This document shows, in pieces, positions 3 to 12,581 of a stretch of DNA of 14,761 bases. The stretch covers positions 1-14,761 of the forward strand of contig JAZDPL010000021.1 of the NCBI GenBank assembly GCA_043797665.1, written 5' to 3'. The position numbers and the translations under genes were made by a program. The notes under the pieces were generated by a model that was given only the letters and a program-made list of their open reading frames with translations, was not told the origin of the DNA and did no database searches. Within the stretch, counting starts at the first letter, position 1. Each line of letters begins with the position of its first letter. This stretch comes from Candidatus Omnitrophota bacterium. GTDB taxonomy: Bacteria; Ratteibacteria; UBA8468; MWAK01.

Positions 3-3000
3 GGACAACAGGCCAAATTGCATGTATTGTTTATCACCTATCTTGACGGCATCCGTGAAATCGCGCAGATTGCGCAAAGAATGGAATTGGAGCCGGTGAT
101 TACACCGGTGGCAGGCCGGGAAACATTTCTTTTCAGTGACTATGGTGAAAAATACCCCATATACTATAGCAGTGTTCCTCCTGGATTTGATGGGCCGCCT
201 TCAGCAGAGATTAATAAAGAAATCGAAAGAGTGTTGGATGGCGAATTTGACGCGCTGGTTTTAGGCACTGTCAATTGGAGTTCTTTTCCCCAGGTGACCC
301 GCGAAAAAATACTCAAGAAAGTGGAAAGCGGTGCGACGCTTATAGCCAAAGTCAGCGGAATTGACGATTTACTCACGAATGCATTAGAAGACCGGACCAA
401 ACCTGATTTGTCTTTTTTGTTTCCGTATAAAGGCCTGCCGGCATTCAGCAAATACCCTGATTTTCAGACATTCCTGGATAATACCGTGCAGATATCCAAA
501 TACGGCAAAGGCCGAATCATCCTGTTGACCGGTTATGATGTGCCGGATTATCAGATGCTGACTCCAGACGTATCCGGCAACCCGGATGACATGAAACTAT
601 TGGATTATGATTATTACCTGGCTTTTGTCATTCATTTGCTTCGTTATGCTTCGGGGAAAGAAGATGACTGCAAGGTTTCCGGCCAGCCGGTACTCAAGGC
701 GGATCGTACTTCAACCATTAATTTGGAGTTTGGTCTTGAGAGCAAGGTGAAGACCAATATGACCTGCGTTTTGACAGTCAGAGATAGAGATAATCGCCTT
801 TTGGCAACACAACAGCAGGCGGTAGCGACAAACTCCGGCAAACAAGTGGTCAAATTCAATGTAGATAAACTGCCGGCAGGAGACTATTTCGCCGATTTGA
901 GAGTGTTGAATGGTGACAAGGTTATGGACTTTGGGTCGTCCTATCTTGAGGTGACTTCCGCCAACAGTGTGGCAGAAGTCGATATAAAAAGAGAATATGG
1001 GGGGAAAGAAAAAGTCGAAGGCAAGGTCGGTCTCATACTAAATGGACAGGAAAAAGATCTAAAACTGCATATAGCCCGGCGCGATAATTATACCCGCGTG
1101 GTCAGCCGGACAGAAGCGTTGGTTAATGATGGGGAAATACCGTTTTCCCTTCCAACCGTGGAAGGGGTAATGTCCGAAAATCAATATCTGGATGTAGAAT
1201 TAAGGAAAGGCGCGGAGGTGTTGGATAGGAAAACCGTCTCATTCCGTGTCAAACAGGATGCCGCACCCGGGGAGAACCGGCATGCGGTGTTGCCGGAATC
1301 GGCGGGGAAGAACAGCTACCTGGCGCCATATCTCAGCGCCGATTATGAGCGTTGCGGGTCAGGTCGGGCGTTGAACAATTTTGTGACCGAGTTGCTTAAT
1401 ATCAGCCAGTTTGCCGATGATGCGATGCAGACGTTTACGTTTGAGAATCCCCGGGATGGTTGGGTATTCTCCGTTCTGACGGCCGATTTCCAAAAAGAGG
1501 AAGACCACGCCTGGGTTTTGCTCGGGTCCGGTCAGGAACTGCGGTCTATTCTGACAGTATCCGGCGCAAATAAGAAGCAGGAAAAAGCGGAAACCATGCG
1601 GTATTTGCCGGCCGGTAAATATACGCTGGCGGTTGGTACGCAGGGTCAAACAAAGCTGAAAAATGTTATTGTCCGAGCAGTGCCGGAAATGCAATTCTAT
1701 AGATATCCCATCTTTAAGACGAAGAGATTCTATCGGGCGGATATTAATCTTGACTGGGATTTCATGCGCCGCCATATCCTGCCGAATATCAACGTGATCG
1801 TCGGAGTTGACACCCTGAACAATGTAAAGACCGCTCTGGACTGGAAAAAAACGGGTGGGAAATGGATTGCCCAATGTAATGTTCCGAAATACCTCCCGGA
1901 AGACGGTATGCCCACGGTGGATGAAGCCTATAAGTTCTGGGCACAGGGCGATCTTGAGAACCCGCTGGTGGACGGACTGATTGCCGACGAGTTTACGATT
2001 GCCCACCTTCCGGAACAACAGAGGAAGTTTGAAGTTTATTGCGCGGCCATCCGTCAGATTAATGACAACCCATTGTATCAAGGAAAAATGTTTTATCCCT
2101 TTATCGGGCTTGGTCAGGCGCGTTATTTTCAAAGCACGTTTCGACACATTTCCGGGTTCGGCTTTAAAATGGCGCTGGAGCGTTATCTGAATGAAATGCC
2201 TTCTCGTGAGCAGGCGGTAAACATGATTGCACAATTATATGATCTGGATATGGAACCGTTCCTGGAGATCAATACCGCGCCGCAAAAGCATATCATTCAT
2301 TATTTTTGTCCCAACAATCAGCTGCAAACATCTCTGTGCGTTGATGTTCTTTCGGACGTCAATTTCAAGGCGTTCCTTGATATGCAGTTTAACTACCTGG
2401 CCAACGCACCTGCATGTGCGGGGTTGTATGGCTTGGGGCCCTGGGTATGTGAATACGCCGACGAAGAAACCATTCGGTGGATGGCTAAACTTTACCGGCA
2501 TTACTGTATTGAGGGAAAACGGGGCATGCTCTCCAGGGATACCTACGAACTTACCCATCTTCGGAACGCCGATTTCGCGAAGGGATTGGAAGACTGGAAT
2601 GTTTCTCCCGCTGAAGAAGGCTGTATTAAAGCCACGACTATTCCCGAAATGCCACGAATTGAATTTCGTGCCGGTTATGTGACGGACAAAGGCGAATGTC
2701 TGTGGCTGAAACGAAGTGCCAAGGCTCCCAACCGGTTCAGCCAGATGGTACGTAATCTTACACCCGGTCGTCTATATTCATTAAAGTTCTTCACCTATGA
2801 TTTGCAGGGACTGGAGATGGAGCCGGAGAAGTTTCACGCGCTGTCCGTCGTGATGGATAACGCCGACGTTCTCAAGGATATCGAGCCCCATGTACAATGG
2901 CGAAATGCGCAAACCAATGAGAAATGCCTGAATCAGCATTATTATCTTTTCCGCGCTAAATCGGGAACCTGCAAATTAACGATTTCGGACTGGGTGGATG

Positions 3001-3086
3001 AGAAGAATCAGGGCGGACCCGCAGGGCAGGAAATTGTTTACGACTTTGTTCAAATCCAGCCGTACCTGGAAAACAATTTGGAATGA
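3..3086 (+). CDS. Large hypothetical protein (>1022 aa), probably 5'-truncated by the window edge; multi-domain, possibly carbohydrate-active
   Basis: The frame is open from position 3 (GGA CAA CAG GCC AAA TTG) to TGA at 3084-3086, so the TTG at 18 is probably not the true start. It has beta-rich segments, a central DGLIADEF acidic motif, and a C-terminal HLRNADFAKGLEDW segment resembling the start of galactose-binding/CBM4-9-like modules. Function is inferred. Confidence 0.8.
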   Translation, partial: GQQAKLHVLFITYLDGIREIAQIAQRMELEPVITPVAGRETFLFSDYGEKYPIYYSSVPPGFDGPPSAEINKEIERVLDGEFDALVLGTVNWSSFPQVTREKILKKVESGATLIAKVSGIDDLLTNALEDRTKPDLSFLFPYKGLPAFSKYPDFQTFLDNTVQISKYGKGRIILLTGYDVPDYQMLTPDVSGNPDDMKLLDYDYYLAFVIHLLRYASGKEDDCKVSGQPVLKADRTSTINLEFGLESKVKTNMTCVLTVRDRDNRLLATQQQAVATNSGKQVVKFNVDKLPAGDYFADLRVLNGDKVMDFGSSYLEVTSANSVAEVDIKREYGGKEKVEGKVGLILNGQEKDLKLHIARRDNYTRVVSRTEALVNDGEIPFSLPTVEGVMSENQYLDVELRKGAEVLDRKTVSFRVKQDAAPGENRHAVLPESAGKNSYLAPYLSADYERCGSGRALNNFVTELLNISQFADDAMQTFTFENPRDGWVFSVLTADFQKEEDHAWVLLGSGQELRSILTVSGANKKQEKAETMRYLPAGKYTLAVGTQGQTKLKNVIVRAVPEMQFYRYPIFKTKRFYRADINLDWDFMRRHILPNINVIVGVDTLNNVKTALDWKKTGGKWIAQCNVPKYLPEDGMPTVDEAYKFWAQGDLENPLVDGLIADEFTIAHLPEQQRKFEVYCAAIRQINDNPLYQGKMFYPFIGLGQARYFQSTFRHISGFGFKMALERYLNEMPSREQAVNMIAQLYDLDMEPFLEINTAPQKHIIHYFCPNNQLQTSLCVDVLSDVNFKAFLDMQFNYLANAPACAGLYGLGPWVCEYADEETIRWMAKLYRHYCIEGKRGMLSRDTYELTHLRNADFAKGLEDWNVSPAEEGCIKATTIPEMPRIEFRAGYVTDKGECLWLKRSAKAPNRFSQMVRNLTPGRLYSLKFFTYDLQGLEMEPEKFHALSVVMDNADVLKDIEPHVQWRNAQTNEKCLNQHYYLFRAKSGTCKLTISDWVDEKNQGGPAGQEIVYDFVQIQPYLENNLE

Positions 3087-3172
3087 ATGGATTAACGATA
3101 GAACCAATTGCAAAAGTATCAGAAACCGTGAATTATTTTTGAAAAAAACGGCACAAATTTTATCAAAATATC

Positions 3173-3341
3173 ATGTCCCAAAAAAACAAAGTACAAGGCA
3201 GTCTGCTGGTCAGTTTTGACTGCACTCAGGATTATCCGGCGGAGACGTATCTAGAACATGGTTCTACCCAAATCGTAGAGACTGCGGCGGGCCGTGACCG
3301 GCTACATCGCGCGCAAAGCCGGACAGATGCTTGCAGGTTAG
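3173..3341 (+). pseudogene. Probable internal-deletion remnant: N-terminal 41 codons of a gene joined out of frame to a C-terminal tail
   Basis: 3173-3295 encodes protein-like [41 protein letters not shown]. From 3297 a different frame reads [17 protein letters not shown] (3339-3341), ending just before the RBS of the next gene. The downstream pilin-like gene has its own SD and ATG at 3374. Confidence 0.4.
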
Positions 3342-3373
3342 GAAAACTCCTTAAACAGGAGGAAAGGAGAAAA

Positions 3374-4057
3374 ATGTCTAAGAAGATAGTGAAGCGGATG
3401 GTGTTCGCGTTTACGCTGATCGAACTTTTGGTGGTAATTGCCATCATTGCCATTTTAGCGGCGATGCTTCTGCCGGCACTCAGCCGGGCACGGGAGAAAG
3501 CGAAGCAGGCGCAATGTATCAACAACTTAAAGCAGATTGGGCTGGCTGTGGCAATGTACGCACAGGATTATGACGAGTGGTTTCCTTGCACCGAAGGAAG
3601 TCCCTGGTATGTAGGTCCTGCCAACCCTTCGGGGTACTGGTGGACTAAATTACTTTACGACTTAGGATACATCCAGAACGCGGGTGTTCTCGTTTGCCCG
3701 AGTTGTTCTCCGTACCAATTTCGTATCCTCCCCGACCACCCCAACTACGCTTGGGGCCGTACCTATGGGTTCATCTACGGTGCATCCGTCCGGTTAAAAG
3801 AGGTTACCGACCCCACCTCGGCTGGTTTGATAGCCGATTCCATAGGTGTTGACAATGATCTTTTTCAATCTGCTTTTGTTTTACCACAGTATAACCCCGG
3901 GTGGCCGATATATATCCATAGCCGCCATACAGGATTTGCCAATGTTTTATTCTGGGATGGTCATGTAGCCTCCTGTAGCGATTCGGATTTGAGGAAAATT
4001 CCCAATAACTGGGCGAGTCAAGGTTTCATCACTTATAGTTATCCCGGAAATCCATAA
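3374..4057 (+). CDS. Prepilin-type N-terminal cleavage/methylation protein with C-terminal H-X9-DG domain (DUF1559-like), copy 1, 227 aa
   Basis: SD AAGGAG at 3364-3369 precedes ATG 3374. It has a basic leader [43 protein letters not shown], then [12 protein letters not shown] and [15 protein letters not shown] (H-X9-DG). The ORF-track start at 3173 is probably too far upstream. Confidence 0.93.
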
Positions 4058-4075
4058 TCAAACTATTCCTTATAA
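3482..4075 (+). repeat. Direct repeat copy 1 (594 bp), ~95% identical to 11975-12565
   Basis: Manual alignment gives 28 substitutions plus one 3-bp indel. It begins at AGCCGGGCACGGGAG and ends 18 bp past the stop codon (TCAAACTATTCCTTATAA). Confidence 0.97.
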
Positions 4076-4081
4076 TTTTCA

Positions 4082-4088
4082 AAGGAGG
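4082..4088 (+). promoter_or_regulatory. Shine-Dalgarno site for GH29 copy 1
   Basis: AAGGAGG lies 5 nt upstream of GTG at 4094. Confidence 0.8.
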
Positions 4089-4093
4089 TTACA

Positions 4094-5029
4094 GTGTCTA
4101 CTCGACGTCATAAGTGGTTCAGTCAAGCACGTTTTGGTATGTTTATCCATTGGGGCTTATATTCAATATTGGGACGCGGTGAATGGGTTATGGATGCTGA
4201 GAAAATTCCTCTGTCAGAATATGAAAAGTTAATTACAAGATTTAATCCCGAAAAGTTTAATGCAAAAGAGTGGGTTTCTTTGGCAAAATCAGCCGGAATG
4301 AAATATATGGTTCTTACGACAAAACACCATGATGGTTTCTGTCTTTTTGACAGTAAACTGACGGATTATACATCCAAGAATAGTCCGGCTAAAAAAGATT
4401 TTGTCGCCGAATTTGTTGAAGCATGTCGGAAAGAAGGCATGAAGATAGGATTTTATTATTCTCTCTTAGATTGGCATCATTCAGATTATCAGGCCAGTCC
4501 TGCTAAAGGAACACTCTCAAAAAAATATATTGACTATTATCATGGCCAGGTTAGAGAATTATGCACTAATTACGGCAAGATTGATATAATGTGGTTTGAT
4601 GGCGAATGGGACCACTCTTATCAGCAGTGGAAATCAAAGGAACTGGTAAGAATGATACGTAAGCTTCAGCCAGATATCTTAATCAATAATCGCCTCGGGC
4701 ATAAGGGAAATTGCCATAGAGATGATATTTCTTATAAAGAAGGAGATTTTGGCACTCCGGAACAGACGATTACTGCTGGGGCATCTGACCGTTTATGGGA
4801 ATCGTGTATGACAATGAATGACCACTGGGGATATGCTTTTGGTGACCATAATTGGAAAACTACAACACAACTCATCCATAACCTGGTTAGATGTGTTGCG
4901 GGTGGTGGTAACTATCTTCTTAATGTTGGTCCAAAACCGGATGGGACAATTCCATTACCATCGGTCAGGCGTCTTAAGAAAATAGGCTCATGGATAAAGA
5001 TAAATGGTAAATCTATATATGGTGCTTGA
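4094..5029 (+). CDS. GH29 alpha-L-fucosidase family protein, catalytic barrel only, 311 aa
   Basis: Motifs ARFGMFIHWGLYS, GEW, AGMKYMVLTTKHHDGFCLFDS, WFDG (nucleophile Asp), INNR, TPEQ, WESCMTMNDHWGY and GGNYLLNVGP. GTG start with strong SD. No signal peptide evident. Confidence 0.93.
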   Translation: MSTRRHKWFSQARFGMFIHWGLYSILGRGEWVMDAEKIPLSEYEKLITRFNPEKFNAKEWVSLAKSAGMKYMVLTTKHHDGFCLFDSKLTDYTSKNSPAKKDFVAEFVEACRKEGMKIGFYYSLLDWHHSDYQASPAKGTLSKKYIDYYHGQVRELCTNYGKIDIMWFDGEWDHSYQQWKSKELVRMIRKLQPDILINNRLGHKGNCHRDDISYKEGDFGTPEQTITAGASDRLWESCMTMNDHWGYAFGDHNWKTTTQLIHNLVRCVAGGGNYLLNVGPKPDGTIPLPSVRRLKKIGSWIKINGKSIYGA

Positions 5030-5033
5030 AAAA

Positions 5034-6089
5034 ATGAATAGTTTTGTCATACACAATAGGGGATTTTTGACTGATCTTTTTGGTGGAGCATCTCATAGAC
5101 ATGCAATTATTACGTGTCCAGAGCCAATCAAATCTTCGGATGGCGATTTTCTGGTTTCGAAAAAGCCGGTGAAAAACTGGCTGTCGTGGGCAGTTACTAA
5201 CTATGAATCTAAAGTAAAGATACTGGAACTTTTTCAGGATGATAGTGTTCCTTACGTCAACCTGAATACTAATACCGGTGTATTTGCGTCAGCCTTCGGT
5301 TGTTGCCTGCATGTTTACAAGGAAGATACGGCAGCTTGCGCCATGCCCATGGTTGAAACAGCAGAAGAAGCAGACCGTTTGCCAGAACCTGATTTGAACG
5401 CACCGGCCATTGAAAGATTTTTTGAACTAGCCAATTTCCTCCGCTATGAATTGGGTAAGGAAGTACCTATCAGCGTTCCGGATGTTCAAAGTCCGTTTGA
5501 CATCGCAGCCCTTGTTTGGAAAAAGGAAAATATGATGACGGCTCTGTACGAAAGGCCGGATTCTGTATTGCGATTGGTTGAGAAATGTCTACAACTTCTT
5601 AAGATTTTCCTGCGTACTTTCATACGTGAGTTTCCAAACTGCAATTTGTGTCATTGTCCAACTGCCTGGGCACCACCAGAATTCGGGGTGTGGCTATCAG
5701 AAGATGAAGCCGGTAGTATCAGCAGTGAAATGTTCGTAAAATTTTGTTTACCAAGCCTGGTTGCTCTCAGTAGAGAATTTGGCGGCATGTTCATTCACTG
5801 TTGTGCAAATGCTGATCATCAATACGGTAATTTCAGGCGTATTCCAAATTTGCGTGGGCTAAACCGTTATTTACCGAAACAGTCAGGTGGGCCGCGTGCA
5901 GTAATCGAAGCTTTCTCCGAGAAAACCGTAATCATGCCTCCTTTTGAAAACGAGCAGAAAGTGTATGAATGGCTTGATATGGCCTTGCCAAACACTCGTT
6001 TTCTCTTTAATTTGCCGGTTGATTTATTGAACATTGAGGAAGCAAAACGCATGTACGATCGCATCCGTGTTGCTGTCACTAAAAACTGA
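5034..6089 (+). CDS. Uroporphyrinogen decarboxylase / MtaA-like methyltransferase fold protein, ~351 aa
   Basis: Motifs PDVQSPFDIAALV, YERPDSV, SEDEAGSISSEMFVKFCLP and IHCCA (HxC metal-binding-like). The start is uncertain (ATG 5004, 5019 or 5034). Confidence 0.75.
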   Translation: MNSFVIHNRGFLTDLFGGASHRHAIITCPEPIKSSDGDFLVSKKPVKNWLSWAVTNYESKVKILELFQDDSVPYVNLNTNTGVFASAFGCCLHVYKEDTAACAMPMVETAEEADRLPEPDLNAPAIERFFELANFLRYELGKEVPISVPDVQSPFDIAALVWKKENMMTALYERPDSVLRLVEKCLQLLKIFLRTFIREFPNCNLCHCPTAWAPPEFGVWLSEDEAGSISSEMFVKFCLPSLVALSREFGGMFIHCCANADHQYGNFRRIPNLRGLNRYLPKQSGGPRAVIEAFSEKTVIMPPFENEQKVYEWLDMALPNTRFLFNLPVDLLNIEEAKRMYDRIRVAVTKN

Positions 6090-6166
6090 AATTAAAAAAA
6101 TGGAAGACCGTGCATTATACCATTCCATAGTAGGCAGGTACGAAAGGATCACCCAGGCAGTCAGAG

Positions 6167-7123
6167 ATGAAGATGTCAGAGGAAGAGAAGAAACGGTTAT
6201 TGCGGCTGATGCTGACCATCAGAAGTTTTGAACTGATGGTGCAGGAGAAACGTTTTCAAGGTCGTATTCCCGGCACGGCTCATCTCTATGTCGGTGAAGA
6301 AGCGTCTGCGGTGGGGGTCTGTGCCGGGCTAAAGAAAGATGATTATCTGGTCAGTACCCACCGGGGCCACGGCCACTGCATCGCCAGGGGCGCCGCGATA
6401 AATCTGCTGATGGCGGAGTTATACGGTAAATCCACCGGTTACTGCAGAGGCAAAGGTGGAAGTATGCATATATTTGTAAAGGAACTGGGTATCCTGGGCA
6501 CAAACGGCATTGTGGGCGCGGGACTTCCGTTGGCGCTTGGCGCAGGACTGCACGCAAAGTTGCGCAAGACCGGCCAGGTCTGTGCCTCTTTCTTCGGCGA
6601 CGGCGCGGCCAATCAGGGAACATTCCACGAATCGCTTAATCTGGCTGCGGTCCAGAGTCTGCCGGTTATTTTTGTCTGCGAGAATAACCTCTATGCTACT
6701 GAGACGCCGGTGCGGGATGCAACCCTGACTAAAAACTTTGCCGACCGTGCTCAGGCGTATGGCATCCCGGGAGAGGTGGTTGATGGAAACAATCTCCTGG
6801 AGGTTTGCGAGAAGGCTTCCCAGGCAATAGAGCGTGCCCGCTCCGGCCAGGGTCCAACCCTTTTAGAATGTAAGACCTACCGGTACCTCGGTCACTATGT
6901 CGGTCATGGTGAGACCGGTTACCGCACCAAAGAAGAAGTGGAAGCCTGGCGCAAAAGAGACCCGATAAAGTTATTTTTCCGGCATTTAGCAGCAGAGAAA
7001 ACCCTGAATGAGAAAGAATTCACTGACATGGAAGGAAAGGTACAGGCTGAGGTAGAAGAGGCGGTAAGGTTTGCGGAGGAGAGTCCCTTTCCGGAACCGG
7101 AAGAAGCGTTAGTAGGGGCTTGA
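6167..7123 (+). CDS. ThDP-dependent dehydrogenase E1 component alpha subunit (acetoin/pyruvate dehydrogenase-like), 318 aa
   Basis: Motifs HLYVGEEA, STHRGHGH, GKGGSMH, NGIVG, GDGAANQG...ENN (ThDP motif) and TYRYLGH. Confidence 0.93.
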   Translation: MKMSEEEKKRLLRLMLTIRSFELMVQEKRFQGRIPGTAHLYVGEEASAVGVCAGLKKDDYLVSTHRGHGHCIARGAAINLLMAELYGKSTGYCRGKGGSMHIFVKELGILGTNGIVGAGLPLALGAGLHAKLRKTGQVCASFFGDGAANQGTFHESLNLAAVQSLPVIFVCENNLYATETPVRDATLTKNFADRAQAYGIPGEVVDGNNLLEVCEKASQAIERARSGQGPTLLECKTYRYLGHYVGHGETGYRTKEEVEAWRKRDPIKLFFRHLAAEKTLNEKEFTDMEGKVQAEVEEAVRFAEESPFPEPEEALVGA

Positions 7124-7188
7124 TTCATCAAGCCCGCGGGTCGGATAAACCTGTCCCTGTGTGTAGTAAACAGGGATCCGACCCCTAC
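7112..7188. repeat. GTAG-type REP doublet (REPIN-like) with a nested hairpin
   Basis: GTAG-GGGCTTGAT-TC-ATCAAGCCC (7112-7135) is followed by GGGTCGGAT...ATCCGACCC-CTAC (7138-7188). Both have perfect 9-bp stems, with terminal inverted repeats GTAGGGG/CCCCTAC. An inner CCCTGT/ACAGGG stem sits at 7155-7175. Confidence 0.8.
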
Positions 7189-7216
7189 GTCAAAATATTT
7201 AATGCGTTTGTATTAA
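7189..7216 (+). repeat. 28-bp intergenic motif, copy 1
   Basis: GTCAAAATATTTAATGCGTTTGTATTAA matches 11830-11857 at 24/28 positions, ungapped. Confidence 0.8.
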
Positions 7217-8196
7217 TGCGTGAGATAAAGTATTTAGAGGCGCTCCGGGAAGGTTTTGCGGCCGGGATGCGCAAAGACCCTGATTCGTTTATGGCCGGTG
7301 AAGGAATCGGGGCGCGCGGCGGGTCTTTTGCTCATACTAAAGGATTGTATGAGGAATTTGGACCGGAACGGGTCCTGGATATGCCCATCTCGGAATCCGC
7401 CTTTGTGGGGATGTGTGCCGGTGCGGCAGCCTGCGGTTCCAGGGCCATAGCGGATTTGATGTATTTTGACTTTATCACCCTGGCCATGGACCAGATTGTC
7501 AACCAGGCGGCAAAGATACGGTATATCTCCGGAGGACAGTTTTCTATGCCCATGACCATAAATGCCATCTTCGGTATCTACCATTCTGCCGGTACCCATC
7601 ATTCTCAGACGTTCTATCCGTGGTTTATCAATACGCCCGGAATAAAGGTGGTCATACCCTCAACGCCGTATGATGTCAAGGGCCTTTTAGCGAGTGCTAT
7701 CATTGACGACAATCTGGTATTAGTATTAGAACACCGGGGATTGCTGAATATTAAAGGAGAGGTGCCGGAAGAAGACTATTTTTTGACCTTAGGTGAGGCG
7801 AAAGTTGTAAAAGAAGGTACTGATGTGACTATCGTGGCTACCGGTCTGATGGTACACCAAGCTCTTAAGTCTGCGGAGGTTCTGGCCGGCAAGGGAGTAA
7901 AGGCTGAAATTATAGACCTGAGAACCCTGGTGCCATTGGATGAGAAGACGGTTATTGATTCGGTTAAAAAGACCCACCGTCTATTAATTGTTGATGAAGG
8001 CTATGGCCCCTGTGGGGTTGGTGCGGAAATCACCGCTGTGGTTCAAAGCAAAGCATTTGATTTCCTGGATGCACCCGTCAGCCGTCTGCAGACTCTAAGC
8101 GTACCAATACCCTACAGTCCACCTTTGGAGCAGTATGTCATCCCTGATGTGGATAAGATTGTCAGTGCGGTATCAGATATTTTAGGAGGATTATGA
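7216..8196 (+). CDS. ThDP-dependent dehydrogenase E1 component beta subunit, 326 aa
   Basis: MREIKYLEAL is a typical beta N-terminus. Other motifs are FGPERVLDMPISE, DQIVNQAAK, HHSQ, PGIKVVIPSTPYD and IDLRTLVPLD. The extension back to TTG 7120 runs through the REP element and is probably non-coding. Confidence 0.92.
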   Translation: MREIKYLEALREGFAAGMRKDPDSFMAGEGIGARGGSFAHTKGLYEEFGPERVLDMPISESAFVGMCAGAAACGSRAIADLMYFDFITLAMDQIVNQAAKIRYISGGQFSMPMTINAIFGIYHSAGTHHSQTFYPWFINTPGIKVVIPSTPYDVKGLLASAIIDDNLVLVLEHRGLLNIKGEVPEEDYFLTLGEAKVVKEGTDVTIVATGLMVHQALKSAEVLAGKGVKAEIIDLRTLVPLDEKTVIDSVKKTHRLLIVDEGYGPCGVGAEITAVVQSKAFDFLDAPVSRLQTLSVPIPYSPPLEQYVIPDVDKIVSAVSDILGGL

Positions 8197-8990
8197 GGAT
8201 AGATTTGAAAGACAAAGTCGCGATTATTACCGGCGGTGCGGCGGGCATCGGCAAGGCTTGTGCAAAACTGATGCTGGAAAATTCTGCTCTGGTAATCATC
8301 GCAGACATCAATACTGAAGAAGGAAAAAAGACCATTACAGAACTATCCGCCCTCGGCAGTTGTGAATTTATCCGGACAGACGTTTCTGACCAAAAAAGCG
8401 TGGGAAATTTAGTGGAAGATGTCGTCAATAAATACAAAAGGATAGATATCATCGTCAACAACGCCGGCATCAATATTAACAAAGCCGAAGACCGTGTCAA
8501 TATTGACCAGTTTGTCTTTGAGGATTGGAAAAATATCCTGGATGTTGACCTCAACGGAGTATTTTATTGCTCTAAGGCGGTATCAAAAGTGATGATAAAA
8601 CAGAAATCGGGCAGAATTATCAATATCGGTTCTGTTTTTGGAAATGTTCCGGCCAGAAAACAGATCGCCTATGTGGCGGCAAAAGCCGGTGTGCACAATA
8701 TGACCAGAGCGATGGCTTTAGAATTAGCGCCGTACGGAATCAACGTCAATGCGGTAGCACCCGGTTCCACGCTCACCGAGGGTACCAGGATGTTGTTTTA
8801 CGGGGATGATGCGGCCCAGGCTGAAGTGGCGGAACGAATGTTATCCCATATTCCGTTAGGCCGCCCCGGCGAGCCGGAAGATATTGCCAACGCGGTACTC
8901 TTCCTTTCCGGTGAGGAGAGTAACTACATCACCGGCCATGTTTTAACCGTGGACGGTGGCTGGACCTGCGGATACACCAGAGACTTTTAA
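8193..8990 (+). CDS. Short-chain dehydrogenase/reductase (classical SDR, probably NAD-preferring), 265 aa
   Basis: Motifs TGGAAGIG, ADIN (acidic residue after beta-2), NNAG, YVAAK, VNAVAPG and VDGG. ATGA overlap with the upstream gene; SD AGGAGG at 8184-8189. Confidence 0.95.
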   Translation: MRIDLKDKVAIITGGAAGIGKACAKLMLENSALVIIADINTEEGKKTITELSALGSCEFIRTDVSDQKSVGNLVEDVVNKYKRIDIIVNNAGININKAEDRVNIDQFVFEDWKNILDVDLNGVFYCSKAVSKVMIKQKSGRIINIGSVFGNVPARKQIAYVAAKAGVHNMTRAMALELAPYGINVNAVAPGSTLTEGTRMLFYGDDAAQAEVAERMLSHIPLGRPGEPEDIANAVLFLSGEESNYITGHVLTVDGGWTCGYTRDF

Positions 8991-9000
8991 GGAGGAACAT

Positions 9001-9963
9001 ATGCTTAAGGTTGCGGTTACCGATTATAACTTTGGAGACCTTGCGGTAGAAAAGGAAATTCTGGAACCATTGGGTTGTGAGATAAAGAGTCAACAGAAGT
9101 ATGAAGACCAGCAAAACCTGATTGACCTGGTTGCGGACGCGGATTATGTAATCACCCAGTTTGCGCCGGTAACCGGTCCGGTTGTCAATGCGATGGAAAG
9201 ATGCAAGGTCATCGTCCGGTATGGCATCGGCGTGGACAACGTGGACCTGGTTACTGCCGCAAAGAAAGGCATTCCGGTCTGTAATGTTCCTGACTATTGC
9301 ATTGACGAGGTCGCCGATCATACCCTGGCGTTGATTTTAGCCTTAACCCGAAAGGTGGTGCCTAACCGGGAAAACATCAAAAACGGGAGATGGGGACTGG
9401 CCGTTCCGCTGGAACAAATGCAGGTGCTAAAGAGGACGACCGTAGGAGTGGTGGCTTACGGCAAGATTGGTCGGGAAGTGGCTCTCCGGCTCAAGGGGTT
9501 CAAATGCCCTGTCCTGGTCTTCGACCCGTTCGTTGATTCTTCGGTAATTGAACGGGATGGCTTTATTCCGGCAACCATGGAAGAGGTCTTTACCAAAAGC
9601 GACCTTATCTCTCTGCACTGTCCCAGTACCGCGGAAACAAAATATCTGATTAATGCGGAAAGTATTGGAAAAATGAAGAAAGGCGTCCTTCTGGTCAATA
9701 CCTCCCGCGGAACACTGGTGAAAACTGATGACCTGATTATGGCGCTGAAAAGCGGGCAAATCGGCGCGGTGGCCCTGGATGTGACTGACCCGGAACCAAT
9801 TCCTGCCGACAGCCCGTTACTGAAGATGGAAAACGTGGTGATTGGCAGCCATATCGCCTGGGCCAGCATAACCTCCGTACAAACCCTCCGCAGGAGTGCA
9901 GCGGACATTGTTGCCTGTGCCATAAAGGGTGAGGAACTGCCTAATATAGTCAAAATAAAATAA
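9001..9963 (+). CDS. D-isomer-specific 2-hydroxyacid dehydrogenase (CtBP/SerA-like), 320 aa
   Basis: SD AAGGAGG at 8989-8995 precedes ATG 9001. Motifs RYGIGVDNVD, NVPDYC, EVADH, AYGKIG, NTSRG, ALDV...EP and SHIA. Confidence 0.93.
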   Translation: MLKVAVTDYNFGDLAVEKEILEPLGCEIKSQQKYEDQQNLIDLVADADYVITQFAPVTGPVVNAMERCKVIVRYGIGVDNVDLVTAAKKGIPVCNVPDYCIDEVADHTLALILALTRKVVPNRENIKNGRWGLAVPLEQMQVLKRTTVGVVAYGKIGREVALRLKGFKCPVLVFDPFVDSSVIERDGFIPATMEEVFTKSDLISLHCPSTAETKYLINAESIGKMKKGVLLVNTSRGTLVKTDDLIMALKSGQIGAVALDVTDPEPIPADSPLLKMENVVIGSHIAWASITSVQTLRRSAADIVACAIKGEELPNIVKIK

Positions 9964-9964
9964 G

Positions 9965-10762
9965 ATGAACTTAGAAAAGGAAAAGAGACCGATAAGAATC
10001 TCTCAGGTTATTAAAGAAGAGAAGGTGAAAACAGACACAATCGCTGTCTTTTATTTGGCTCAGGCAGGTTTCTGTTTCAAAGATAGCCGTGGACAAACTG
10101 TATACTTGGACCCTTACCTGACCGATAGCTGTAACCGCCTCTTCGGTTTTAAGCGGATGATTCCCTCGGTCATTACTCCAGAAGAGGTTAACGCTGACAT
10201 CCTGGTTTCTACTCATAGTCACCTTGACCATCTGGATGTGGATGCGGTCCCCAGCTTCGCCAAAAACCCAAAAACCTGCTTTGTAGGTTCACCGGACTGC
10301 GAAGAGGTCTACCGGAAATTTCGTATTCCTGAACAGAGATACTCCATCCTCAAAAGAGGACATTCTGTAACCATTAAAGGGATAACCTTAAAGGCCACCT
10401 ACGCTGACCACGGCAAACTGGCGCCAGAAGCGGTTGGTTTCCTGATAGACCTTGACGGAATTAAGATTTACAATGTCGGCGATAGCGCTTATGCTCCAAA
10501 AAAGATTATGGATTCCCTTAAGACAAAGGTGGATATCATGATTTCGCCGATAAATGGCAAATTCGGAAATATGGATGCTAAAGAAACCTGCCGATTGGCT
10601 GGCGTTATCAAACCAAAAATTCTAATCGCCAGCCACTTCTGGATGTTTATCCAACACAATGGAGACCCGGAAAAATTCTTAAAGGAAGCCAAAAAACTTC
10701 CCGAAGGAATAAGGGCTTTGGTCATGGCGCCCGGCGAAAAACTTATCTATGTTCAAGGATGA
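9965..10762 (+). CDS. Metallo-beta-lactamase-fold hydrolase, UlaG (sugar-lactonase)-like, 265 aa
   Basis: Motifs LAQAGF, LDPYL, THSHLDHLD (HxHxDH), ADH, GDS, PINGKFGNM and SHFWMF. Confidence 0.88.
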   Translation: MNLEKEKRPIRISQVIKEEKVKTDTIAVFYLAQAGFCFKDSRGQTVYLDPYLTDSCNRLFGFKRMIPSVITPEEVNADILVSTHSHLDHLDVDAVPSFAKNPKTCFVGSPDCEEVYRKFRIPEQRYSILKRGHSVTIKGITLKATYADHGKLAPEAVGFLIDLDGIKIYNVGDSAYAPKKIMDSLKTKVDIMISPINGKFGNMDAKETCRLAGVIKPKILIASHFWMFIQHNGDPEKFLKEAKKLPEGIRALVMAPGEKLIYVQG

Positions 10763-10766
10763 TATT

Positions 10767-11828
10767 ATGAAAAAGATGATGAAGGCCGCCCGGATATTTG
10801 GAGTAAATGACATCAGAATCGTTGAGGTACCGGTGCCGGAATTAGGTTCTCATGACGTTCTCTGCCGGGTAGTAAAGGTGGGTGTCTGCGGAACCGACTA
10901 TTCCATCTATACCGGGACATTATCGTTTATCAAGACCGGTGCCATTAAGTTTCCGATGACCCCGGGTCACGAATGGTCTGGAATCGTAGAAAAGTCCGGT
11001 TCAGCGGTGGAAAATTTCAAGACCGGCGACCGGGTCGTCGGCGATACGATGGTTTCTTGCGGGGTTTGTTACGACTGCCTGGTGGGTGCCTACAGCCACT
11101 GCAAAAAGGGACGCGCGGTCGGAACAATCTATACCTGGGACGGCGCCTACGCGGAATACATTATGATGCCGGACCGGCACCTCTTCCATCTTCCGGACCC
11201 GGTGAGTTTTGATAACGGAGCGATGGTGGAACCGGCTGCCACCGCTCTCTATTCGGTTACCCGGGCTAACGTTAAAATTGCGGATACGGTTTTAGTCCAC
11301 GGAACGGGACCAATCGGAATAATGGCGGCTAAATTGGCAAAACTCTGTGGAGCGGTCAAGGTAATTATCACCGGCCGGAAAGAATTTAAGTTACAGAAGG
11401 CGCTTGCTTTAGGGGCAGATTTTGCTATCAACACCACCCGAGAAAACCTTGCGGAAAATGTCCGGGAATACGCTGGTCCTGGTGGTGTGGACAAGGTTAT
11501 TGAAGCCTCCGGCTCAACCCAACTCTTTACCGAATCGCTCGGCCTGGTCAAGCCCGGCGGTATCATTTCCATAGTCGCCTTCTATGAAAAAGAACTGGAA
11601 CGGTTTGACTTGGACAAATTCGTGATGAGCGACCTTACCATCCGGGCGGTCCCGGGAAGTTTAGGGATGTACGGACCAATCCTGAAATTGATGGCTTCCG
11701 GTACCATAGATTTTACTCCGCTCATCACCGGAAGATACCCTTTCGGAGAGGTTGAACAGGCTTTACAGGATATGGGAACCAAAAACGATACCCGCATCAA
11801 AATTATGCTGGAGATGACGGAGACCTAA
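10767..11828 (+). CDS. Zn-dependent medium-chain (sugar alcohol/threonine-type) dehydrogenase, ~353 aa
   Basis: Motifs CGTD, GHE, structural Zn CxxCxxCx7C (CGVCYDCLVGAYSHC) and GTGPIG. ATG 10767 follows AAGGA; 10749, 10776 and 10779 are alternative starts. Confidence 0.93.
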   Translation: MKKMMKAARIFGVNDIRIVEVPVPELGSHDVLCRVVKVGVCGTDYSIYTGTLSFIKTGAIKFPMTPGHEWSGIVEKSGSAVENFKTGDRVVGDTMVSCGVCYDCLVGAYSHCKKGRAVGTIYTWDGAYAEYIMMPDRHLFHLPDPVSFDNGAMVEPAATALYSVTRANVKIADTVLVHGTGPIGIMAAKLAKLCGAVKVIITGRKEFKLQKALALGADFAINTTRENLAENVREYAGPGGVDKVIEASGSTQLFTESLGLVKPGGIISIVAFYEKELERFDLDKFVMSDLTIRAVPGSLGMYGPILKLMASGTIDFTPLITGRYPFGEVEQALQDMGTKNDTRIKIMLEMTET

Positions 11829-11872: not shown

Positions 11873-12547
11873 ATGGTTAAGAAAATGCTAAACAGGATGG
11901 GCTTCACGCTCATAGAGCTTTTGGTGGTAATTGCGATAATCGCGCTTCTGGCGGCGATGTTGTTACCGGCTTTGAGCCGGGCACGGGAGAAAGCGAAGCA
12001 GGCGCAATGTATCAACAACTTAAAGCAGATTGGGCTGGCTGTGGCAATGTACGCACAGGATTATGACGAGTGGTTTCCTTGCACCGAAGGAAGTCCCTGG
12101 TATGTAGGCCCTGCCCACCCCTTGAATTACTGGTGGACTAAATTACTTTACGACTTAGGATACATCCAGAACGCAGGTGTTCTCGTTTGCCCGAGTTGTT
12201 CTCCGTACCAATTTCGTATCCTCCCCGACCACCCCAACTACGCTTGGGGCCGTACCTATGGGTTCATCCAAGGTGCATCCGTCCGGTTAAAAGAGGTTAC
12301 CGACCCCACCTCGGCTGGTTTGATAGCCGATTCCATAGGTGTTGACAATGATCTTTTTCAATCTGCTTTTGTTTTATATTGGTATTACCCCGATTGGCCG
12401 ATACATATCCATCGCCGCCATACAGGATTTGCCAATGTTTTATTTTGGGATGGTCATGTAGCCTCCTGTAGCGATTCGGATTTGAGGGAAATTCTTAACA
12501 ACGCGGGTGAAAGTTTCATCACTTATAGTTATCCCGGAAATCCATAA
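11873..12547 (+). CDS. Prepilin-type N-terminal cleavage/methylation protein with H-X9-DG domain (DUF1559-like), copy 2, 224 aa
   Basis: SD GGGAGG at 11860-11865. Leader [21 protein letters not shown], then CINNLKQIG and [15 protein letters not shown]. Confidence 0.95.
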
Positions 12548-12565
12548 TCAAACTATTCCTTATAA
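11975..12565 (+). repeat. Direct repeat copy 2 (591 bp), ~95% identical to 3482-4075
   Basis: The offset from copy 1 is 8493 bp before the 3-bp indel and 8490 bp after it. Confidence 0.97.
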
Positions 12566-12581
12566 CTCAGAGGAGGCATCT

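Follow-up and report, generated by a model that had tools for sequence, protein, structure and literature searches.

Recombination between paralogous genes has been described in several forms, summarized here from excerpts of the published accounts. In H. pylori, chimeras of babA, babB, and babC carry their crossover approximately 60–240 bp from the gene start (PMC4552749). For the methanogen pair mtrA-1/mtrA-2, one domain has been homogenized and the other stays distinct (PMC4632066). Conversion favors nearby copies (PMC3924837), and homology-facilitated illegitimate recombination with one-ended anchoring has been proposed for loci with a constant 5′ and a variable 3′ part, such as Vibrio T6SS modules and Rhs (PMC5361080). 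Neisseria pilE/pilS tracts are described as having CCGG sites at their borders (PMC13321361). Large families of DUF1559 paralogs are on record for planctomycetes (PMC4807772, PMC2754498); our literature search found no report of recombination among DUF1559 paralogs.

We analyzed a 14,761-bp window, the entire contig C74 of a 2.69-Mb metagenome-assembled genome (MAG; 93 contigs, 86% complete; hereafter G000). Two DUF1559 prepilin-like genes, A and B, lie within it, and an earlier note on this DNA had proposed that they join old leaders to recently shared bodies. We regard the pair as a clean natural snapshot of reshuffling in a very large pilin-like family, with a signature in six genomes behind it.

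Gene layout of the window

Genes A and B are direct repeats lying 8,493 bp apart, each followed directly on its 3′ side by a GH29 gene (Table 1). A GH29 gene is found downstream of 3 of the 61 DUF1559 paralogs in G000, A and B being two of the three. The block between the repeats encodes URO-D-like, E1 alpha, E1 beta, SDR, 2-hydroxyacid dehydrogenase, metallo-beta-lactamase (MBL)-fold, and Zn dehydrogenase proteins. Upstream of gene A lies a 1,022-aa ORF (18–3086) with no Pfam match. GH29-A, whose end overlaps the URO-D-like ORF (5004–6089), is probably a truncated, foreign gene; apart from one contig-edge fragment, other GH29 matches have open frames of ~390–716 aa, as against its 311 aa. An 84-bp dispersed repeat at 7111–7194, between the E1 alpha and E1 beta genes, has 7 nearly complete copies in G000 as well as 154 matches there of at least 40 bp; repeats of ~300 bp are also numerous in this genome. 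A promoter and terminator scan of positions 3000–4200 returned nothing informative.

Table 1. Coordinates of the features of the window and the basis or chief property of each
Feature	Position	Strand	Remark
Gene A ribosome-binding site and leader peptide	3355..3409	+	weakly similar to that of B
Gene A, DUF1559 prepilin-like, 227 aa	3374..4057	+	leader, then FTLIELL; C-terminal H-X9-DG motif
Gene A, helix-coding codons 1–24	3410..3481	+	pS 0.76 to B
Recently shared tract, copy A, 594 bp	3482..4075	+	~95% identical to B
Right junction and GH29-A ribosome-binding site	4076..4088	+	short similarity to 12566–12576
GH29-A, alpha-L-fucosidase family, 311 aa	4094..5029	+	GC3 0.32; shorter than homologs
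Sugar-catabolism-type block between the repeats	5004..11828	+	profile matches
Gene B, DUF1559 prepilin-like, 224 aa	11873..12547	+	leader, then FTLIELL
Gene B, helix-coding codons 1–24	11903..11974	+	codon comparison
Recently shared tract, copy B, 591 bp	11975..12565	+	sequence comparison
GH29-B, 684 aa	12582..14636	+	51% identical to GH29-A, pS 0.82 (saturated)

Family membership and predicted fold

Both proteins score above cut-off for the prepilin N-methylation motif (PF07963/TIGR02532; PF07963 at 27.4 bits for A and 28.1 bits for B) and for PF07596 (56.1 and 48.6 bits, respectively, against a cut-off of 23.3), the latter matching only profile positions 2–57. Both also carry the C-terminal H-X9-DG motif, read directly from the sequences; a profile search returned no NCBIfam model for it. 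Residues H173, N178, D183, G184, and H185 are conserved in at least 90% of 81 aligned rows. The predicted structure of B (pLDDT 80) has a helix at residues 3–53 and a small, beta-rich head. Queried with this model, Foldseek placed pilins in 10 of the 11 top rows, none at E ≤ 0.001.

The family is large, with ~40–65 members per genome bearing orphan heads: five other genomes of the same class each gave 47–66 DUF1559 matches among the matches listed. Best matches to the whole protein within the class reach 46%. For the A/B body, a protein collection searched at near lengths yielded 83 candidates of which one was the query itself and the only relative, and 95 pattern matches in metagenome contigs yielded none that was confirmed. 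A and B are complete genes, and start signals, loosely defined as an SD-like motif with an in-frame start, precede 51 of 59 G000 paralogs. Among the eight that lack this combination are C30+20756, C37+40937, C85-40270, C13+5264, and C92+98083; several of the eight have repeat-like sequence immediately before the prepilin motif.

A step in synonymous divergence at codon 24

Comparison of the two genes reproduced the earlier counts exactly. Fourteen of codons 1–24 differ, 13 synonymously and 1 non-synonymously (I/L at codon 15), and the following 134 bp are fully identical from 3482/11975 to the first difference at 3616/12109. Of the codons that encode the same residue in both genes, 13 of 23 in the helix differ against 5 of 175 across the body (Fisher p 9.8e-11), and synonymous divergence (pS) is 0.76 in the helix against 0.06 in the body overall; by segment, it is 0.76 for codons 1–24, 0.00 for codons 25–60, and 0.07 from codon 61 to the end. 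The best change point of the pair is codon 24. With this step, A and B constitute a real leader/body mosaic, which simple duplication cannot produce.

Two further descriptions in the earlier note call for refinement. The helix was said to be the portion most conserved as protein, which is true across the family; within the pair, pN is 0.057 in the helix and 0.046 in the body. Helix DNA identity between A and B is 75% against a family median of 76%, and by this measure the two helices are no more alike than those of an arbitrary pair of paralogs. At the 3′ side, identity stops 18 bp past the stop codons, at 4075/12565, as had been described, and near-identity extends slightly farther, by a few bases, within the ribosome-binding sites of the GH29 genes, where TCAAAGGAGG compares with TCAGAGGAGG after a 2-nt offset. 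Nine of 10 bases match through this site, which may be just shared SD sequence, and strong GH29-A/GH29-B homology begins 50–70 bp past the tract end.

The body itself is not identical, differing by 28 substitutions and one 3-nt indel across 594 bp. By codon, these amount to 5 synonymous changes, 15 non-synonymous changes, and 1 gap, clustered at codons 69–75, 123, 159–171, and 196–205. Most changes are non-synonymous (body pN/pS ~0.74); 23 of 28 gaps between changes are 10 bp or less against a mean of 11.1 expected, and both this clustering and the ratio could be inflated by multi-base codon changes and by bubble merging during assembly. The changes tend toward alignment columns of slightly lower conservation (p 0.042), within family-variable loops that are of low confidence in the structure model. 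Divergence peaks under conversion are, in the excerpted account, a described sign of selection (PMC3924837), and the loop changes here may reflect selection.

Short-read metagenome assembly could in principle have produced such a mosaic by a chimeric join or a repeat collapse. The draft state of the MAG (93 contigs, 86% complete) and the frequency with which contigs of the class end inside DUF1559 genes both invite this explanation. The 46 of 74 end pairs found in which contig ends overlap by 141 bp indicate a final assembly k of 141, however, and the 136 bp from diagnostic base 3481 to diagnostic base 3616 fit within one 141-mer. Mis-resolution of the repeat would only exchange the two leaders, leaving the mosaic pattern as it is. 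Collapse presupposes near-identity and cannot make saturated sequence alike; it would also have erased the differences at 3682 and 3776–3778, which survive between identical runs of 47–105 bp. No exact match exists elsewhere for the 21 bases that follow the junction. Taken with these points, an artefact appears highly improbable. Bubble merging at smaller k could have removed some isolated SNPs, which would lower body pS.

Breakpoints in other related-body pairs

The earlier note asked whether the breakpoint recurs at the LSRAR codons, and it does not. In G000, the pair C46/C81 has the same polarity as A/B (pS 0.65 in the helix, 0.08–0.09 in the body) and a best change point at codon 9–11; the other genomes place theirs at codon 11, at codon 13, and, with polarity reversed, at codon 30, and tract edges are scattered. 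Likewise, the 18-mer at the 3′ junction was found only at its two sites in the window even with 2 mismatches allowed. C46/C81 further share a downstream gene (pS 0.11); the two are on separate contigs, which join through a 141-bp end, and could represent two strains. On C81 (2042–5632), a 1,196-aa ORF stands between the DUF1559 gene, whose last codons it clips, and a 681-aa gene that on C46 directly follows the sister DUF1559 copy. In a third pair, on C33, the entire gene has been copied and no leader/body step is seen. Its members (9507–10224 and 21522–22240) lie 12 kb apart, extend from ribosome-binding site to terminator region, and bracket large carbohydrate-type genes; the second copy has a degenerate helix.

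Trees for codons 1–24 and 25–58 (58 rows; 72 and 102 columns), built to look for leader/body incongruence, were unresolved, and AU tests rejected nothing (p 0.67, 0.65, and 0.78), the helix trees with their 72 columns neither showing nor rejecting sister status for A and B (p-AU 0.67). The case for incongruence therefore rests on pS, identical tracts, and linkage decay.

Origin of the shared body

We consider it probable that A and B are old DUF1559 paralogs between whose loci a single recent RecA-type ectopic event copied ~590 bp. The tract is young between old flanks, with pS values of 0.76, 0.06, and 0.82 from left to right, the right-hand GH29 homology being weak; such an old-young-old pattern is what a conversion tract would be expected to leave. 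Transfer of the body into a paralog already in place, as the earlier note envisaged, is the best reading because neither helix has a near-identical donor among the other paralogs, the leaders are preferentially alike, and both genes precede a GH29 gene; the special breakpoint that went with the proposal falls away. Among the 59 other paralogs of the set, the best helix identity to A or B is 85%. The best leader match of A is B, the two leaders being mutually first and second best among 60 paralogs, and the similarity ranks 50 of 1,830 pairs, making it weak but preferential. The best match of GH29-A is a gene on C81 at 55%, as compared with 51% for GH29-B, and GC3 is 0.32 for GH29-A and 0.53 for GH29-B; because the two GH29 genes are not clear sisters, the A and B loci do not plainly form a single unit duplicated long ago.

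The same observations bear on a recent whole-gene duplication in which the leader and helix of one copy were then overwritten from a third paralog. Whole-gene copies do occur, as C33 shows, and helix-only or leader-only tracts move often: C17/C43 share 86 identical bp, C43/C87 at least 125 identical bp upstream, and the G017 pair L069/L074 shows the reverse polarity. Recent replacement of an N-terminus is made less likely by the lack, in the assembly, of any donor exceeding 85% for either helix, and the leaders of A and B are more alike than most, which leaves this order of events quite improbable.

An unlikely account of a different geometry has the 8.5-kb block from GH29-A to leader B inserted or duplicated by a single crossover, with the bodies as the resulting direct repeats. 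The repeats do bracket foreign-looking parts: GH29-A is shortened with a GC3 of 0.32, the dehydrogenase of the block was not found in 64 other genomes of the class at E ≤ 1e-80, and the MBL-fold gene finds its best relatives, at 59%, in other phyla. A search for an orthologous locus through the latter gene gave 26 loci, none from a close relative. The 12-kb bracket on C33 is similar, and C46/C81, sharing body and downstream gene, have only a 5′ junction, in the helix. Such a crossover would nonetheless need exchange within the conserved block to leave different helices on alike bodies, so this account differs from ectopic conversion only in geometry. Nothing points to a circular or mobile intermediate, and the 12 window ORFs scanned include no recombinase.

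Under the favored ectopic conversion, strand exchange would have begun in the conserved block common to ~60 paralogs at ~75% DNA identity, helped by the 8.5-kb spacing of A and B, and its left end would have resolved at codon 24/25 by chance. The right end may have been joined where a short AGGAGG similarity precedes GH29, either through conversion against the diverged GH29 homology or through homology-facilitated illegitimate joining. Approximately 590 bp would thereby have been copied from one locus over the other, in either direction, placing a head domain behind a different leader and promoter and in a different operon. The clustered amino acid changes may have arisen after conversion or have been spared by patchy conversion.

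A recombination signature across six genomes

We compared 293 DUF1559 genes from six genomes (59, 54, 37, 44, 60, and 39 per genome), a set that excludes short or duplicate rows. The best 30 loci were taken from 61 listed matches in G018 and the best 30 from 49 in G012; those of G024, G017, and G020 are nearly complete. As a null model, synonymous codons were shuffled within columns (100 shuffles for G000), a procedure that ignores kinship. Identical tracts of at least 40 bp within codons 1–45 occur in 20 of 1,653 G000 pairs against a null mean of 0.6 and maximum of 4, and counts exceed the null maximum in all six genomes, the pairs not being independent. Linkage between synonymous sites decays with distance at p < 0.05 in 5 of 6 genomes. 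In three genomes, tracts of at least 44 bp join 11 of 75 pairs within 15 kb, a count that includes A/B, against 14 of 4,352 others. Tandem duplication likewise favors neighbors.

Among the 293 genes, 36 pairs share at least 44 identical bp at the N-terminal block with bodies less than 40% identical. The commoner mosaic has the opposite polarity to A/B, a shared helix on unrelated bodies. Tract edges scatter from −119 to +160, and the tracts agree with expectations for gene conversion in their scattered ends and preference for nearby copies. These patterns indicate that, throughout the class, the ~55 initial codons common to the paralogs serve as a substrate for recombination. G000 has recA and also a mutS-family gene. 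In the related-body pairs L089/L127 and L069/L074 of G017 and L107/L108 of G020, the two genes cease to resemble each other at the stop codon or shortly after it, and unrelated DNA follows, as though gene-sized units were moving.

Programmed switching at a fixed site, by pilE/pilS-like conversion, a shufflon, or a diversity-generating retroelement (DGR), is barely credible here. A constant N-terminus with a variable head, as in pilins, a sharp edge, clustered non-synonymous changes, CCGG sites flanking the junction, and the presence of a DGR in the genome all lend it some appeal. No site recurs, however; A and B are complete with start signals, as are most of their paralogs, and the window holds no G4 pattern. 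CCGG is the commonest palindromic tetramer in G000, at one per 86 bp, and falls at Pro22-Ala23 in 49 of 59 paralogs. It was counted at 10 tract edges in G000 against 5.5 expected, these edges being non-independent, and is not enriched in the other five genomes (3 seen versus 4.5 expected). In its broader tetramer usage, G000 strongly avoids CTAG, GATC, and AGCT (observed/expected 0.10, 0.23, and 0.37) and over-represents CCGG.

Specific forms of such a system were rejected in turn. The template repeat of the DGR matches its own target and not A/B, the 9 kb around the genome's only reverse transcriptase hold no match to these genes, and the A/B differences involve all four bases instead of being adenine-specific. 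A shufflon or integron-type system finds neither a recurrent site nor a recombinase among the 12 window proteins, and CCGG-initiated recombination lacks CCGG enrichment at tract edges outside G000. The DGR itself (locus L016; C50, 7512–10036) looks complete, with Avd (NF033474 over cut-off) and a reverse transcriptase. Its template repeat lies at 8679–8811, and its variable repeat, at 7512–7645, closes a long ORF. Of 19 substitutions, 17 affect template adenines, and related stretches occur on C36, C56, C5, and C47.

Implications

If leader/helix and head differ in history, as the A/B pair indicates, whole-gene trees and orthology assignments will mislead for DUF1559 proteins. DUF1559 genes also break short-read assemblies. 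The two heads, 92% identical and 16 loop residues apart, provide a ready pair for comparing head binding.

A broader and more doubtful possibility is that the N-terminal block of ~170 bp serves as a recombination handle, which might re-plug orphan heads under new leaders and promoters, sometimes with carbohydrate-use genes behind, the loops then diversifying under selection. If true, unprogrammed, recombinase-free shuffling would explain the rise and spread of 40–65 DUF1559 heads per genome among sugar-use loci.

Comparison with known systems

By profile, A and B belong with DUF1559/SBP_bac_10 (PF07596) proteins, passing the Pfam cut-offs and carrying the H-X9-DG motif. They differ in being shorter, at ~215 aa when mature, and in that PF07596 covers only its first 57 of 268 positions.

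Among described exchanges, the bab chimeras are similar in joining an old 5′ end to the body of another paralog through a crossover early in the gene, and mtrA in that one domain is homogenized and the other part kept distinct. Unlike either, the DUF1559 family has 40–65 members per genome with orphan heads and no phase-variable repeat, and in A/B the block conserved across the family is the part left diverged. The T6SS and Rhs loci may offer a parallel in which, as proposed for them, a conserved 5′ coding block is the anchor, the other end joins with little homology, and a new 3′ part is brought under an old 5′ part. In A/B, by contrast, no orphan displaced 3′ remnant follows either gene, and the donor appears intragenomic.

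Neisseria pilE/pilS shares with A/B a pilin-like constant N-terminus, a variable head, and available RecA. It differs in its silent truncated donors, G4 pattern, and CCGG enrichment, none of which accompanies A/B, and in scale, the A/B tract spanning a whole body and the Neisseria tracts being patches of 10–500 bp moved into one expression locus. The A/B case is likely a familiar, ordinary recombination process and not a new switching system.
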